The notes beneath the pieces were generated by a model that had not been told where the DNA came from, did not search any database, and saw only the letters and a list, made by a program, of their open reading frames with translations. Both the position numbers and the translations under genes were made by a program. This document shows, piece by piece, positions 1-4,177 of a DNA stretch of 4,177 nt (within the stretch, counting starts at the first letter, position 1; every line of letters starts with the position of its first letter). Source of the DNA: a virus (taxonomy: Duplodnaviria > Heunggongvirae > Uroviricota > Caudoviricetes); the IMG/VR virus record IMGVR_UViG_2711768070_000005, positions 1 through 4,177 of that record, one strand, 5' to 3'.

Positions 1-1
1 T

Positions 2-37
2 CTGGAGCTTATCAGTAAACAGAGAGGTTCGAAGTGA
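2..37 (+). CDS. 3' end of an upstream phage gene (partial, runs off the 5' edge)
   Basis: Frame 2 is open from the window edge to TGA at 35-37. This stop overlaps the GTG start of the next gene as GTGA (34-37), a typical coupled junction. Frame 1 also ends at TAA 16-18, so the frame assignment is uncertain. Confidence 0.25.
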   Translation: MELISKQRGSK

Positions 38-591
38 GCGAAATTAATTATCAGGCACTGCGTGAAAAGGCAGAAAAAGCAACTAAAGGGAGCTACATCG
101 TAGGGCATACATCTGTTAATCGGCATGGCAATTTAACAGGAGTTTTTGTTTGTCAAAAATGGAAAGAAGAACCCGGTGGTGTGATTGCGGAATGTCATGT
201 TAACTGCCTGGTTGAAACAGATGTTCAGGCTTATGCAAACGCTGAATTTATTGCTGCTTTTAATCCAAATGTTGCGCTGGCACTGCTGGATGAACAGGAA
301 AGGAACCAGCAATACATCAAACGCCGCGACCAGGAGAACGAGGATATTGCGCTAACGGTAGGGAAGCTGCGTGTTGAGCTTGAAGCAGAAAAACAGCGGG
401 CAAAAGTTCTATTTATGGAAAATGCTCGGCTTAAGTCAGGCATAGCCGGTCTGATACACCTCGGTATTCGATATGCAGATGTTGAGGTCATGAAAATTGC
501 TGGAGATGCCCAGCTTTCTACTCCATGCACTGACAGCATCATAAACAGCATTGCAGCAGGCATTTTCACCAAAGAGGGGGCAGCACGATGA
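34..591 (+). CDS. Ead/Ea22-like phage early protein (185 aa)
   Basis: GTG start at 34 preceded by AGAGAGG (21-27) at 6-nt spacing. The N-terminal region (QALREKAEKATKG...NAEFIAAFNPNVALALLDEQE) matches my recollection of the Ead/Ea22-like family, followed by a charged coiled-coil-like segment. Family assignment is from memory, not a search. Confidence 0.65.
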   Translation: MSEINYQALREKAEKATKGSYIVGHTSVNRHGNLTGVFVCQKWKEEPGGVIAECHVNCLVETDVQAYANAEFIAAFNPNVALALLDEQERNQQYIKRRDQENEDIALTVGKLRVELEAEKQRAKVLFMENARLKSGIAGLIHLGIRYADVEVMKIAGDAQLSTPCTDSIINSIAAGIFTKEGAAR

Positions 592-731
592 GAACACTAG
601 AGGTTCGCGCTGAAGACGTAATCCCTGGTGATGTGCTCATAACATCTAAAGGTCAACAATGTGCGGTTAAATCTTTTTGGATGGAAAATGACAAAGTGAC
701 TTCAGTTCGGTACGGATGGTTCCGAAACTGA
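588..731 (+). CDS. Small hypothetical phage protein (47 aa), translationally coupled
   Basis: ATG at 588 overlaps the upstream stop as ATGA (588-591). A strong SD, GAGGGGG (574-580), lies 7 nt upstream. Open to TGA at 729-731; translation MRTLEVRAEDVIPGDVLITSKGQQCAVKSFWMENDKVTSVRYGWFRN. Absent from the ORF track because it is short. Confidence 0.5.
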   Translation: MRTLEVRAEDVIPGDVLITSKGQQCAVKSFWMENDKVTSVRYGWFRN

Positions 732-773
732 TTATGACTATGACGAATTGCTTGTTATTGAGAGAGCTGCCTA

Positions 774-1196
774 ATGACCACCTTTACCAAAGAACAGTTA
801 ATCTCCCATGCACGCGAAAGCGTTAGTTATCTGGAAAACTTGAAAGGACGTGTTAGCAAAGAAGGTGCGGACTGCAAAGTTGTTATTGAGATGGTTGCAC
901 GAGATCTAAAACTGGCACGAATTGCACTGGCCTCGCTGGAAGCAAAACCAATAGGTGCATTCCACATTGCAGAACAGCAAGTTGACGGCACAAGTGACTA
1001 CATCAAGGATGGGGAATGGCCTATTGATAATGGAATTATTGAGGTCTACGCCGCTCCCCCCGTTCCAGTAGTACCGGAAGAAAAACCAATGCCTAATCCT
1101 CTTAGCATGTACGCGGTTGATGCTGTTGCCGCTATTGCAGAGGTGAGAGGCTGGAACGCCTGCCGCGCTGCAATGCTTCAGAGAAAAGGAGAGTGA
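774..1196 (+). CDS. Hypothetical phage protein (140 aa)
   Basis: ATG at 774 with GAGAGAG (760-766) 7 nt upstream. The stop TGA (1194-1196) sits 1 nt before the next ATG. No family recognised. Confidence 0.65.
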   Translation: MTTFTKEQLISHARESVSYLENLKGRVSKEGADCKVVIEMVARDLKLARIALASLEAKPIGAFHIAEQQVDGTSDYIKDGEWPIDNGIIEVYAAPPVPVVPEEKPMPNPLSMYAVDAVAAIAEVRGWNACRAAMLQRKGE

Positions 1197-1197
1197 T

Positions 1198-1704
1198 ATG
1201 ACCACTATAACCGATAAGAAACAGTATCCAGGCGAGCAATATCTTAATGAGCTGATCACCAACATAGAGTTTGCGGCAAGGGCACCAGTTGAAGTCGTGA
1301 GAGCGATGGCAGCAGAGCTACAGAAGCGGCGCGAAGCTGATAGTGCAGAACCTGTAAGCCAAACTTACAAGTTAACTTTTGAGCAATGGCTGGAACAGCA
1401 GCACGGCAAAATTGATGTTGATTGCGGCTGTGTGAGCACTGAAACGCTTCTGCACTGGATGCGTGTGGCGTATGAGGCTGGCAACTCTCCGGTAATTCCG
1501 GATGGTTGGATAAACTGTAGTGAGCGAATGCCGGATACAAAAACAGCCGTTCTTGTTGCCGTGGAGTTTGGCAGGAAAGGTGACTGGCGAATGAAATGGG
1601 CGACTTACATCCCGGGGCATCCTGACGCTAATGATGGGTGGATAATTCCTGGTGCGTCGTGGAAACCGTCACACTGGATGCCGCTACCAGAGCCTCCACT
1701 TTGA
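1198..1704 (+). CDS. DUF551-domain phage protein (168 aa) with an N-terminal extension
   Basis: ATG at 1198 with AGGAG (1187-1191) 6 nt upstream. The C-terminal ~65 aa (GWINCSERMPD...VLVAVEFG...GWIIPGASW..SHWMPLPEPPL) fits the DUF551 signature as I recall it (W-I-x-x-x-E-R-L/M-P ... HWMPLPEPP). Confidence 0.75.
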   Translation: MTTITDKKQYPGEQYLNELITNIEFAARAPVEVVRAMAAELQKRREADSAEPVSQTYKLTFEQWLEQQHGKIDVDCGCVSTETLLHWMRVAYEAGNSPVIPDGWINCSERMPDTKTAVLVAVEFGRKGDWRMKWATYIPGHPDANDGWIIPGASWKPSHWMPLPEPPL

Positions 1705-1800
1705 AAGCGAAGCTTATACATATCTTTTACATCAGCAATCTATTGTTAATCTCCAATCAATGTTACGTTGTCATCTCACTCATGCTTTGGAGGTAGTGAT

Positions 1801-1980
1801 ATGTCTTGTCCAAAATGCGGTTCTGGAAATATTGCAAAAGAAAAAACAATGCGTGGATGGTCTGATGATTATGTGTGCTGCGATTGCGGATACAACGACT
1901 CTAAAGACGCATTTGGAGAGCGTGGTAAAAACGATTTTGTCAAAATTAATAAAGAACGCGAAGGCAACGAAAAAAGCTAA
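1801..1980 (+). CDS. Small zinc-ribbon protein (59 aa; CPKC...17 aa...CCDC)
   Basis: ATG at 1801 with a consensus SD, GGAGG (1789-1793), 7 nt upstream. Two Cys pairs (CxxC ... CxxC) form a zinc-ribbon pattern. The ORF track starts this frame at TTG 1768, but the ATG with SD is the more likely start. The overlapping 115-aa ORF (1652-1999) in another frame is judged spurious. Confidence 0.55.
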   Translation: MSCPKCGSGNIAKEKTMRGWSDDYVCCDCGYNDSKDAFGERGKNDFVKINKEREGNEKS

Positions 1981-2043
1981 TTTATTTATTCATATATGAA
2001 AACAATGTAACCAATATTCGAATTGAAGAACTGAAAGAACACC

Positions 2044-2066
2044 AAGCCGCCTGATGGCGGTTTTTT
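2044..2066 (+). terminator. Rho-independent terminator of the upstream early operon
   Basis: GC stem CCGCC (2047-2051), loop TGAT, GGCGG (2056-2060), immediately followed by TTTTTT (2061-2066). It lies 64 nt after the zinc-ribbon stop. Confidence 0.65.
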
Positions 2067-2076
2067 CTTGCCTGAT

Positions 2077-2092
2077 TTGCAGGTTCGATTCC
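2077..2092 (+). other. Orphan tRNA-Arg (argW) T-arm fragment, 16/16 nt; not a functional tRNA
   Basis: TTGCAGGTTCGATTCC is identical to the variable-loop end, T-stem and T-loop of argW as I recall it (...AATTGCAGGTTCGATTCCTGCAGGGGACACCA). The downstream sequence (CTATTCGG) cannot pair with GCAGG, and there is no acceptor stem, so it is a fragment. Confidence 0.55.
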
Positions 2093-2111
2093 CTATTCGG
2101 AGATAGCACTC

Positions 2112-2312
2112 ATGCAACACGAACTACAACCTGATTCACTGGTTGATTTGAAATTCATCATGGCCGATACTGGCTTTGGTAAAACCTTCATCTACGACCG
2201 GATTAAGTCCGGCGACCTGCCAAAAGCCAAAGTTATCCACGGTCGAGCAAGATGGTTATATCGTGACCATTGTGAATTCAAAAATAAGCTCTTAAGCCGC
2301 GCCAATGGGTAA
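2112..2312 (+). CDS. torI: Prophage excisionase / recombination directionality factor, Xis-type winged helix (66 aa)
   Basis: ATG at 2112 with GGAGA (2099-2103) 8 nt upstream. The translation MQHELQPDSLVDLKFIMADTGFGKTFIYDRIKSGDLPKAKVIHGRARWLYRDHCEFKNKLLSRANG matches my memory of E. coli TorI (66 aa, KplE1 RDF). Its position as the last gene before the att core fits an RDF. Confidence 0.8.
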   Translation: MQHELQPDSLVDLKFIMADTGFGKTFIYDRIKSGDLPKAKVIHGRARWLYRDHCEFKNKLLSRANG

Positions 2313-2328
2313 AATAGCGGGTAAAATA
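2307..2328 (+). promoter_or_regulatory. Tandem direct repeat GGGTAAAATA-gc-GGGTAAAATA; candidate integrase arm-type or RDF binding sites in the attR arm
   Basis: Two exact 10-bp copies (2307-2316 and 2319-2328) with 12-bp periodicity. They overlap the torI stop codon and lie 58 bp from the att core. The function is inferred only from position. Confidence 0.35.
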
Positions 2329-2385
2329 TTTCTCACACCTAAAAAACACCATTCCAATCAATCCCCTGCTGCCTCAAGTAGATGT

Positions 2386-2401
2386 CTGCAGGGGACACCA
2401 T
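2386..2401 (+). other. attR core: duplicated 3' end of tRNA-Arg argW (CTGCAGGGGACACCAT); prophage/chromosome junction
   Basis: Exact match to the last 15 nt of argW (CTGCAGGGGACACCA) plus T, the 16-bp core I recall for KplE1 attL/attR. Sequence to the left does not match argW, so identity ends at the core boundary. Confidence 0.7.
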
Positions 2402-2519
2402 TTATCCTTCCAACGAAATCTACCTTCCCCGCGTAAAAGTTGGGTTTGGCAGCACACTTGCCCTAAATCTACTCATTTTCCCTGCAACAGGTTGAAATCT
2501 CAGCACTGTGCGGCGATGA

Positions 2520-2756
2520 CTAAACAGCCCCGGGCCTGGCAATGTAATCATCACACAGAATCCTGATCGCGAAATCTGGCTTGACTCGATACTTCACTCC
2601 GCAATGCATTCCTTGATGGATTAGCAGGCCCGTGATACACGGGACAGGTCGCTGAATTACGACAATTTCCTGGAAATCAGCGAACCGCGTATCCTGAGTA
2701 CATTTGAGCGACTGTTCCAGAACATGAATGAGGCGTTTGGATTAGGCGATTATTAG
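2520..2756 (+). pseudogene. Possible gene relic: protein-like open frame with an in-frame TAG (2622-2624); strand and identity unresolved
   Basis: The plus frame reads LNSPGPGNVIITQNPDREIWLDSILHSAMHSLMD*QARDTRDRSLNYDNFLEISEPRILSTFERLFQNMNEAFGLGDY*. The minus strand in the same codon phase is open across 2520-2741 (…LLIHQGMHCGVKYRVKPDFAIRILCDDYIARPGAV*). There is no credible start or SD on either strand. It could equally be non-coding. Confidence 0.2.
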
Positions 2757-2835
2757 CCGCGATAAGCATTTTGGTATTATTATTTTCCGGTTGAGGGATA
2801 TAGAGCTATCGACAACAACCGGAAAGAGTTTACGT

Positions 2836-4083
2836 CTATATTGCAGAAGGTACAGGCGTTTCCATCACCATTTGCTCACGTTTTTTACTCAGGAAGAAAA
2901 TGCCAAATAACAACATCAGGCAGACAATACCCGAAATTACGAAGAAAACCGTCTGGTAACCTGCATGGTCAAAAAGTATTCCAGTCGGCGTTGAAAGCAA
3001 CACAATCCCCAACGAACTGGCAATTTGAAAACCAATCAGAAAGATCGTCGACGACAGGCGTTTATCAAAGTTTGCCACGCTGTATTTGAAGACGGAAATG
3101 ACACACAGTGGAACCTCAATGGCATGTAACAGCTTCACTAATGAAATAATCCAGGGATTAACGAACAGTGCGCAGGAAAGAATACGCAACGCCATAATCA
3201 CAACACCGATAAGTAATGCATTTTTTGGCCCTACCCGATTAACAAAGAAAGGAATAATGGCCATGCACAGCGCTTCGAGTACAACCTGGAATGAGTTGAG
3301 ATAACCATACAGGCGCGTTCCTACATCGTGTGATTCGAATAAACCTGCATAAAAAACAGGAAAGAGCTGTTGATCAAAAATGTTATAGAAAGACCACGTC
3401 CCCACAATAAATATGACGAAAATCCAGAAGTTTCGATCCTTGAAAACTGCAATAAAATCCTCTTTTTTTACCCCTCCCGCATCTGCCGCTACGCACTGCT
3501 GATCCTGATATTTAAAACGCATGTTGATCATCATAAATACAACGCCAAATAGCGAAACCAACCAGAAGTTGATATGGGGACTGATACTGAAAAATATGCC
3601 AGCAAAGAACGCGCCAATCGCATAGCCAAAAGATCCCCAGGCGCGCGCTGTTCCATATTCGAAATGAAAATTTCGTGCCATTTTTTCGGTGAAGCTATCA
3701 AGCAGACCGCAGCCCGCCAGATACCCCAAGCCAAAAAAGAGCGCCCCCAAAATTAGACCTACAGAAAAATTGCTTTGCAGTAACGGTTCATAAACGTAAA
3801 TCATAAACGGTCCGGTCAAGACCAGGATGAAACTCATACACCAGATAAGCGGTTTCTTCAGACCGAGTTTATCCTGGACGATGCCGTAGACCATCATAAA
3901 TAGAATGCTGGTAAACTGGTTGACCGAATAAAGTGTACCTAATTCCGTCCCAGTCAACCCTAGATGTCCTTTCAGCCAAATAGCGTATAACGACCACCAC
4001 AGCGACCAGGAAATAAAAAAGAGAAATGAGTAACTGGATGCAAAACGATAGTACACATTTCTGAATGGTATATTCAGTGCCAT
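2836..4083 (-). CDS. cscB: Sucrose:H+ symporter, LacY/oligosaccharide-H+ symporter family MFS permease (415 aa)
   Basis: Long minus-strand ORF ending in TAG (complement of 2836-2838). The translation MALNIPFRNVYYRFASSYSFLFFISWSLWW... matches my memory of E. coli CscB and shows LacY-family features. The ORF track start (TTG, 4101) adds 6 residues; the ATG at 4083 giving MALNIPF is the likely real start. Confidence 0.85.
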   Translation of the reverse strand: MALNIPFRNVYYRFASSYSFLFFISWSLWWSLYAIWLKGHLGLTGTELGTLYSVNQFTSILFMMVYGIVQDKLGLKKPLIWCMSFILVLTGPFMIYVYEPLLQSNFSVGLILGALFFGLGYLAGCGLLDSFTEKMARNFHFEYGTARAWGSFGYAIGAFFAGIFFSISPHINFWLVSLFGVVFMMINMRFKYQDQQCVAADAGGVKKEDFIAVFKDRNFWIFVIFIVGTWSFYNIFDQQLFPVFYAGLFESHDVGTRLYGYLNSFQVVLEALCMAIIPFFVNRVGPKNALLIGVVIMALRILSCALFVNPWIISLVKLLHAIEVPLCVISVFKYSVANFDKRLSSTIFLIGFQIASSLGIVLLSTPTGILFDHAGYQTVFFVISGIVCLMLLFGIFFLSKKREQMVMETPVPSAI

Positions 4084-4094
4084 AATTACCGTAA

Positions 4095-4120
4095 GCGTCA
4101 ACGGAGCACCGTATTGACGC
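4095..4120 (-). repeat. Inverted repeat GCGTCAA-N12-TTGACGC in the intergenic space upstream of cscB
   Basis: A 7-bp perfect inverted repeat (4095-4101 and 4114-4120) lies between the stop of the upstream minus-strand gene (4121-4123) and the cscB ATG. It could be an mRNA hairpin or a protein-binding palindrome. Confidence 0.35.
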
Positions 4121-4177
4121 TTATTTATTGGTGAGTACTACGTTCCATGGCAGGAGTTCGTCAACTCGGTTGGAAGG
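4121..4177 (-). CDS. cscK: 3' end of an upstream minus-strand gene (partial, 18 codons plus stop); probably fructokinase cscK
   Basis: Only one minus-strand frame is open from the window edge to TAA (complement of 4121-4123); it reads ...PSNRVDELLPWNVVLTNK*. The cscK assignment rests on the known cscKB operon arrangement; I cannot confirm the CscK C-terminus from memory. Confidence 0.45.
   Translation of the reverse strand, partial: PSNRVDELLPWNVVLTNK

Follow-up and report, generated by a model that had tools for sequence, protein, structure and literature searches.

A conserved argW T-arm copy in the torI leader of HK620/Sf6/KplE1-type prophages, a candidate control element

Why does a prophage inserted in a tRNA gene carry, on the far side of its excisionase gene, a second perfect piece of that tRNA? 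The question is raised by a window of 4,177 nucleotides (the whole stretch of DNA that was analysed, positions 1 to 4,177 of IMG/VR virus record IMGVR_UViG_2711768070_000005), which is the right end (attR) of a prophage of the HK620/Sf6/KplE1 type integrated at the tRNA-Arg gene argW. Here torI, the gene of a recombination directionality factor (RDF) or excisionase (PMC2951348, PMC3509656), lies between two sequences identical to parts of argW. The downstream piece belongs to the attachment (att) core. The upstream piece contains a 13-nt copy of the tRNA T-arm, CAGGTTCGATTCC, hereafter the box, which is kept across genera in the leader of torI and probably regulates this gene.

Both pieces are authentic argW sequence. 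The tRNA reference is K-12 argW (NC_000913.3 2466309-2466383; L003 510-584), the window being devoid of attL, and its 3′ end reads ...GGGCTAATTGCAGGTTCGATTCCTGCAGGGGACACCA. Compared with this reference, TTGCAGGTTCGATTCC at 2077-2092 corresponds to tRNA positions 46-61 and CTGCAGGGGACACCA at 2386-2400 to positions 61-75, with one C common to both, 0 mismatches and a single occurrence of each in the window. The preliminary description of this DNA had reported two exact pieces of argW overlapping by one base; the K-12 gene bears out the argW sequence used there and the overlap alike. The interval between the pieces, 293 bp, holds torI and both GGGTAAAATA repeats. A chance match of the 16-mer was rejected, since its expected number in 4177 bp on two strands is ~2e-6 and its occurrence is restricted: in a diverse set of loci totalling ~390 kb, GTTCGATT(T)CC, its core, was found only in tRNA-Arg(CCU) genes, upstream of RDF genes and in one coding region. 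Shuffled versions of the window gave a mean of 0.04 matches even with 3 mismatches allowed, and the same core is single-copy in the complete 38-kb HK620 genome. Extensions of the tRNA homology were rejected on both sides: upstream, GCCTGAT can be aligned by eye with GGCTAAT only by means of a gap, and other lineages do not conserve it; downstream, the resemblance to TGCAGGGGAC is no better than chance.

The downstream piece is part of a regular attR. The att core, published as 16 nt (PMC2951348), is CTGCAGGGGACACCAT, and its copy at 2386-2401 is identical to the 3′ end of argW in comparisons with K-12 argW and the KplE1 attR. torI reads toward this core with arm-type repeats in between, a layout shared by HK620, Sf6 and K-12. 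Arm-type sites contain TAAA (PMC2951348); the GGGTAAAATA repeats of the window are kept in all lineages and annotated as an attP repeat in HK620, and the stop codon of torI falls within the first of them. Past the core, the DNA is that found after intact argW in prophage-free strains: at the empty sites of E. coli, an intact argW annotated as tRNA-Arg is followed by the window's right flank at 100% identity.

The upstream piece recurs well beyond this prophage. RDF loci were gathered from two sources, a set of genomes with a single representative for each species and viral contigs found with divergent RDFs as seeds; a first scan of viral contigs returned only loci with identical TorI, and diversity came from genome contigs and from re-seeding with divergent RDFs. 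Lineages, 27 in all, were defined as RDF genes less than 93% identical in nucleotides to each other. The torI region is matched by over 2,900 records of E. coli genomes and by 182 of phages, and the TorI protein is 100% identical in 80 viral contigs. Upstream of torI, the identical 16-mer is present in K-12 KplE1, HK620 and Sf6, and in 125 of 133 E. coli-type loci examined in viral contigs. The search of related prophages for the same T-arm fragment upstream of the RDF gene, as the preliminary description had advised, found CAGGTTCGATTCC or a close variant ahead of the RDF Shine-Dalgarno sequence in 12 of the 27 diverged IntS/TorI-type modules, namely those of E. coli, Citrobacter, Serratia, two Pantoea groups, Edwardsiella, Erwinia phage Midgardsormr38 and several metagenomic phages. 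Its position is nearly fixed: the gap to GGAG measures 5-8 nt in 11 of the 12 lineages (14 in Serratia), and the distance from GTTCG to the DLKFIM anchor 59-62 nt in 11 of the 12. Five lineages carry tandem copies, with a 16-bp period in four and 13 bp in L123. Presence in free phages, in K-12 KplE1 and in other genera matches the one option listed in the preliminary description that survives, that of an ancestral feature of the prophage family.

In the modules lacking the box, only the leader of ~45 nt differs, and torI, arm repeats and core are retained. Some of these leaders resemble clean deletions, with the terminator, ATTGCCTG and then GAGG directly. In Dryocola sp. (L089 ~9960-10000) and in L158-L160, a T-run and ATTG(CCTG) are directly followed by the Shine-Dalgarno sequence, the box segment of ~25 nt being seemingly cleanly removed. 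Other observations concern the sources of the loci. Two contigs, L096 (titled as an Actinomycetes metagenome-assembled genome) and L106 (a Parachlamydiaceae one), contain enterobacterial-type torI modules with the box, their RDFs being 77% and 97% identical, respectively, to the Erwinia-phage query RDF, which suggests that these contigs contaminate the bins concerned. In Proteus hauseri (L101 9995-11570), a TorI-like gene (72% identity) lies 1.3 kb from an opposite-strand tRNA-Arg(CCU) whose T-stem is ACAGG/CCTGT; this locus has neither GGGTAAA arm repeats nor the box and represents another module architecture at the same tRNA.

Alignment of the twelve box lineages, anchored on the pentamer, delimits the conserved segment. 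GTTCG, TT and CC are invariant; the CAG before the pentamer has a pairwise identity of 56-83%, everything farther 5′ is at background (22-46%), and identity drops 3′ of the box as well. The additional 5′ TTG, by which the match reaches 16 nt, is specific to E. coli and at background elsewhere. Over the 13 box columns the mean pairwise identity is 0.87 versus 0.62 at torI third-codon positions (resampling P = 3e-5). Such an island of conservation favours function over a neutral scar, and the alignment shows a box maintained by selection across genera. The idea that it tracks the T-stem of the host tRNA was discarded: Edwardsiella-type boxes read ACAGG, versus GCAGG in IntS-type attL sites with a matching acceptor end, so that 5′ of CAGG the host tRNA is not followed and tracking is limited to the 13 nt.

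Is the box then the missing half of an att site split by torI, as the preliminary description supposed? The attP region already has a T-loop of its own. Within the 14 nt that adjoin the inferred crossover (TGCAGGG) on its left, an in-register T-loop-like TT-GAT occurs in 24 lineages, its columns T, T, G, A and T matching the tRNA in 71-100% of them. The left core-type region, GTAGATGTC in the window, reads TTCGATGTA in most relatives, and in a Klebsiella phage the T-loop-like segment next to the crossover, CAGGTTAGATGTA, reaches CAGGTTAGAT. Since attP carries its own T-arm beside the core, either decayed or constrained by IntS, the upstream box is an extra copy; the notion of a split stands as regards the argW origin of both pieces and fails as regards a gap to be filled. 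Nor is the exact abutment of the halves general, since only 13 nt are conserved, the 5′ TTG is E. coli-specific, and in Serratia the tRNA match, CAGGTTCGATTCCTG, extends 2 nt more on its 3′ side and shares 3 nt with the core. That the E. coli match is perfect over 16 nt and meets the core at a single shared base is a coincidence of this lineage, added to the 13-nt box; its additional TTG coincides in part with a TTGC motif like that of lambda pI.

A search for contiguous halves was made with a synthetic junction (eaG terminator, contiguous 30-mer and window flank) against 5,426 E. coli genomes. None of these has contiguous halves inside a prophage: full-length matches consist of two pieces with torI between, and contiguous matches begin exactly at TTGCAGG, which is intact argW at empty sites. 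Full-length argW compared with phage records matches mainly prophage records with the host tRNA at attL, or phage-encoded tRNAs. No second T-arm-like sequence was found in HK620 at or beyond the int end of the module. Two recombination sites were considered at the box and rejected: a recombination-competent secondary or relic att core, as there is no inverted half-site partner at a 7-bp overlap and the box-to-GGAG gap varies between 5 and 14 nt, and a pseudo-att site composed of the box, 7 nt and GAGATA, whose spacing is variable. The suggestion that torI and its arm form a separable cassette is not supported, HK620 having no partner T-arm at the int end and the box-less lineages differing only in the ~45-nt leader.

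Several explanations compete with a regulatory function. Tandem or nested integration of prophages at argW in this very chromosome could have left the box as a relic att site, which would suit the status of argW as a hot spot of variable islands and prophages and the 293 bp that separate two tRNA pieces at the prophage end. However, the same arrangement exists in the circular genomes of the free phages HK620, Sf6 and Kapi1, in KplE1 and in other genera, and the 5,426 E. coli genomes give only two-piece full-length matches with torI between. Because it is present in free phages, KplE1 and other genera, the box is phage DNA and not a chromosomal scar; this explanation, advanced in the preliminary description, is already refuted by the free phage genomes and retains practically no probability. 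Another possibility is a functionless scar within the phage itself: an ancestral attP with at least 30 nt of contiguous argW homology would have received torI and the P arm, leaving the 16-mer as a stranded left half, or else recombination, illegitimate or through an aberrant action of Int, would have attached a B arm ahead of torI. The 16-mer does stop exactly at the start of the inferred crossover and, with the core, rebuilds 30 nt of argW; in every lineage the conserved module has its left mosaic boundary no more than 10 nt from the box; and box-less lineages resemble clean indels (for example, TTTTTTATTGCCTG|GAGG in Dryocola). Yet a scar should decay neutrally, and the box shows an identity of 0.87 between flanks at 22-46%. 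Further, nothing is missing from an attP with its own in-register T-loop-like segment by the core, the abutment is not general (only 13 nt conserved, 3 nt shared with the core in Serratia), a scar would not be expected to occur in tandem, as the box does in five lineages, and HK620 has no partner fragment at the int end of its module. A scar is thus unlikely.

The region can also be read as the cII-dependent integration promoter pI, the TTGC repeats binding cII and the T-arm-like bases being a mere spacer. The GenBank record of HK620 places a 'phage integration' promoter at the equivalent of window 2067-2105 (L001 1588-1626) and a cII-binding site at that of 2068-2080 (L001 1589-1601), and the Sf6 record marks the equivalent region as pI; these features support the reading, and the annotation is an analogy to lambda pI. 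The region is also collinear with the pI/cII site that immediately precedes xis in lambda, and no base differs from lambda up to the first TTGC. Near-identity to lambda (upstream of xis) and P22 covers the terminator and the end of the eaG region (1990-2071), and the mosaic boundary lies immediately past the first TTGC (2068-2071), with 5 nt left to the 16-mer. After this TTGC lambda reads GTGTAATTGCGGAG...ATG(xis), and the window CTGATTTGCAGGTTCGATTCCCTATTCGGAG...ATG(torI). Promoters of the lambda cII type have TTGC-N6-TTGC straddling the −35; at 2068-2080 the spacing is N5, versus N6 in lambda pI and in HK620's own pRE. TTGC-N5-TTGC occurs 6 times in HK620 for 3.0 expected, which was counted as not enriched. 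A search for a sigma-70 promoter predicted none and no sigma-70-like −35/−10 was found, though such a scan may miss a promoter activated by cII. Unlike the box, the TTGC repeats are conserved in E. coli-type phages only, and a promoter spacer should not be the most conserved part; pI is therefore quite an unlikely explanation of the box. Still less probable is an element acting as RNA, in which the box would form a T-arm-like hairpin in the torI leader or pair its UUCC with GGAG, as an anti-Shine-Dalgarno, and limit TorI translation. The Shine-Dalgarno sequence is predicted to be unpaired with a mean probability of 0.15 in 12 box leaders versus 0.52 in 11 box-less ones, AUU(U)CC:GGAG(A/G)U and outer GGUU:AACC helices recur in Citrobacter- and Pantoea-type leaders, and Edwardsiella-type elements keep a 6-bp GACAGG/CCTGTC stem. 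However, the initial signal is largely gone under the control in which the box alone is shuffled (still 0.27-0.28 unpaired versus 0.16-0.20 observed), just 3 lineages among the 12 stand out individually and Edwardsiella shows the reverse, RNAalifold yields no consensus structure or covariation in the 12 leaders, and anti-Shine-Dalgarno pairing leaves the invariant GTTCGA unexplained; the hairpin and the pairing were both rejected. There is no conserved T-arm hairpin, the 3′ T-stem strand of the tRNA being absent in E. coli (CCCTA instead of CCTGC), and ARAGORN finds no tRNA in the window.

The preferred reading is a protein-binding element controlling torI: the box would be a cis-element in the RDF leader of a large part of the IntS/TorI (KplE1/HK620/Sf6-type) family, a binding site for the phage's own recombination protein, TorI or IntS, that couples torI expression to this protein. 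This has about an even chance of being right. TorI is the first candidate ligand. It binds GTTCG pentamers, its sites having been defined by mutating GTTCG, GATCG and GTCCG, and represses the intS promoter, PintS, through them (PMC2951348). In the box, GTTCG (2083-2087) lies on the torI strand, in the orientation of sites I1-I5; site I4 of E. coli, GGTTCGCTTC, agrees with the box at 9/10 bases, and the I4 of L224 is GTTCGATTT. Bound 16 nt upstream of its own Shine-Dalgarno sequence, TorI could exert negative feedback or stand as a roadblock to transcripts that read through the terminator. A second possible ligand is the IntS core-binding domain, since the box reproduces the attB left half-site that IntS must recognise; the invariant TTCGAT of the box is what the B and C sites share. 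The torI promoter, PtorI, has been described as uncharacterised (PMC2951348), and an attR of 135 bp suffices for excision in vitro (PMC3509656). That the box lies outside this sufficient attR fits a regulatory rather than a recombination role.

Several observations weigh against this assignment. With 15 of the 27 lineages lacking it, the box is dispensable. As a TorI site it is atypical: known TorI sites do not need ATTCC, which is invariant in the box; the base after GTTCG is C or T in 27 of 28 P′-arm sites and A in only one (I4 of L224), as in the box; and tandem boxes are spaced 16 or 13 bp versus 10 or 20 bp for P′-arm sites, the E. coli box being single, so that the array phasing of these sites is not reproduced. 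As an IntS site it differs from the other core-type sites (C, C′ and B′), which resemble nGnTGTC, and no inverted partner faces it across a constant 7 bp, the distance to GGAG being anywhere between 5 and 14 nt. A sigma-70 promoter is likewise not predicted at the box, and the conservation test takes third-codon positions as its neutral proxy and ignores phylogenetic structure.

A bolder version of the same proposal starts from attL. In three diverged attL sites (K-12 L003 561-690, L222 1350-1480 and L224 2880-3010), GTTCG-type pentamers occupy identical positions, at −10 (argW T-loop), +21, +41, +84, +94 and +104 from the first base of TGCAGGG, that is, with gaps of 31/20/43/10/10 bp. The T-loop pentamer is at the conserved −10, 31 bp from I1, in all three, and because these positions are fixed it is roughly in helical phase with the mapped TorI sites. 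The argW T-loop GTTCG might then be a sixth RDF contact in attL and attB, and the box ahead of torI would be the phage's imitation of the left half-site of attB, by which TorI or IntS gauges its own level and shuts off torI. To this extension only a low likelihood is given. If true, a single tRNA-derived sequence would serve both the control of directionality and the autoregulation of the RDF, and the DNA code of the excisionase would be a copy of the T-loop.

Table 1. Features of the window, with the tandem form of the box in related modules (positions refer to the window unless a locus is named)
Feature	Position	Strand	Basis or remark
eaG-like small gene	1801..1980	+	open reading frame (ORF); annotated 'Eag protein' in closest E. 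coli genomes; resembles P22 eaG and HK620 hkaD
Intrinsic terminator	2044..2067	+	8-bp stem, 4-nt loop, T-run
TTGC-N5-TTGC	2068..2080	+	counterpart of the cII-binding site annotated in HK620 for the 'phage integration' promoter (pI)
16-mer identical to argW 46-61	2077..2092	+	end of variable loop, 5′ T-stem, T-loop, CC
Conserved T-arm box CAGGTTCGATTCC	2080..2092	+	13 nt kept across genera; GTTCG pentamer 2083-2087
torI Shine-Dalgarno GGAG	2099..2102	+	6 nt past the box
torI, recombination directionality factor (excisionase), 66 aa	2112..2312	+	ORF; torI annotation in E. coli genomes
Two GGGTAAAATA repeats, 12-bp period	2307..2328	+	IntS arm-type sites of the P arm; starts 2307 and 2319
Left core-type (C) region GTAGATGTC	2378..2386	+	degenerate T-loop in tRNA register
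16-nt att core CTGCAGGGGACACCAT	2386..2401	+	argW 3′ end plus T
Crossover region TGCAGGG, 7 bp, inferred	2387-2393	+	TGTC/GACA inverted repeat; Klebsiella and other variants diverging after GACAC
Chromosomal flank of attR	2402..4177	.	~430 bp non-coding, then LacY-family permease
LacY-family sucrose-type permease	2836-4101	minus	Pfam LacY_symp E = 1e-191
Tandem box	L004 1783-1811 (Erwinia phage Midgardsormr38); also L126, L127, L129, L123		upstream of excisionase gene

The remaining features are listed in Table 1. The window carries Ead/Ea22-like genes and DUF551 genes besides the eaG-like gene, with which the early-left 'ea' region ends and the recombination module is reached; over 500 bp, the closest E. 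coli genomes attain only 98% identity. In K-12 KplE1 (L003 10440-10470) the terminator that shortly precedes the box is degenerate, CCATCGCCGTCATAGAGCGTATTTTT versus the intact CCATCGCCGCATCAATGCGGTTTTTT of related prophages, which may bear on read-through into torI in K-12. At the other end of torI, an ORF at 2305-2436, the counterpart of HK620 hkaB and Sf6 gene 17, overlaps the end of the gene and crosses the att core into host DNA, so that its C-terminus is host-encoded in the prophage state; it is probably not a real gene. Identity with HK620 attP spans 21 nt at 2386-2406 (CTGCAGGGGACACCATTTATC) because the chromosomal flank of this strain opens TTTATC, as the phage P′ arm does; the K-12 flank, by contrast, departs from HK620 attP right after CCAT. 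The permease next to attR adjoins, in the closest genome, a gene annotated as aminoimidazole riboside kinase, and looks like part of a csc-type sugar locus at the argW hot spot.

Why such a box matters follows from the place of the IntS/TorI module as a well-studied alternative to the lambda paradigm for the control of prophage excision, in which the promoter and leader of torI are uncharacterised. Lying immediately ahead of the excisionase gene, a selected box identical to tRNA sequence offers a concrete candidate for the missing control element, with RDF autoregulation or a roadblock on read-through transcripts as its possible roles; such transcripts, according to work by Menouni and coworkers dated 2013, reportedly trigger excision. 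In more general terms, tRNA-derived sequence can be retained by a phage for reasons other than restoration of the tRNA gene, which bears on the evolution of att sites and of RDF specificity. A warning for annotation also ensues, such tRNA fragments being not to be read as scars of nested integration.

Among known systems, the closest is the KplE1/HK620/Sf6 module itself (attL-intS ... torI-attR at argW; Panis et al. 2007, 2010), with the same torI, 16-nt core, arm repeats and orientation and with the 16-mer verbatim in K-12 KplE1, HK620 and Sf6. The locus does not differ and is well known; what is new is that the torI leader is recognised as holding a conserved copy of the argW T-arm. The sites mapped so far are confined to attL and the 135-bp attR (PMC2951348, PMC3509656), a full-text literature search with the box as a sequence string found no phage paper, and the box appears undescribed within the accessible literature. 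Compared with the TorI sites I1-I5 of attL, the box has the same GTTCG on the same strand, and a recombination protein would double as a repressor in both cases (PMC2951348); it differs in being single in E. coli, with A rather than C or T after the pentamer, an extra ATTCC tail and a tandem spacing of 13/16 instead of 10/20, and is best called a candidate site. The pI/cII site of lambda, upstream of and overlapping xis, has the same position relative to the excisionase gene, with an identical terminator and first TTGC. It differs by N6 in place of N5, by the absence of ~18 bases (AGGTTCGATTCCCTATTC) that the window has between the second TTGC and GGAG, and by lying partly inside the gene, whereas the putative promoter of the window precedes the RDF start and has TTGC repeats that other genera do not keep. 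Finally, blocks identical to tRNA in the attP of tRNA-integrating elements are said to have been described by Reiter in 1989 and Williams in 2002. These are likewise phage-borne copies of the 3′ part of the target tRNA, and the segment decays 5′ of the exchange region, as in the C site; here, in contrast, a second and better conserved T-arm copy lies ~300 bp away, beyond the RDF gene and outside the functional attR.

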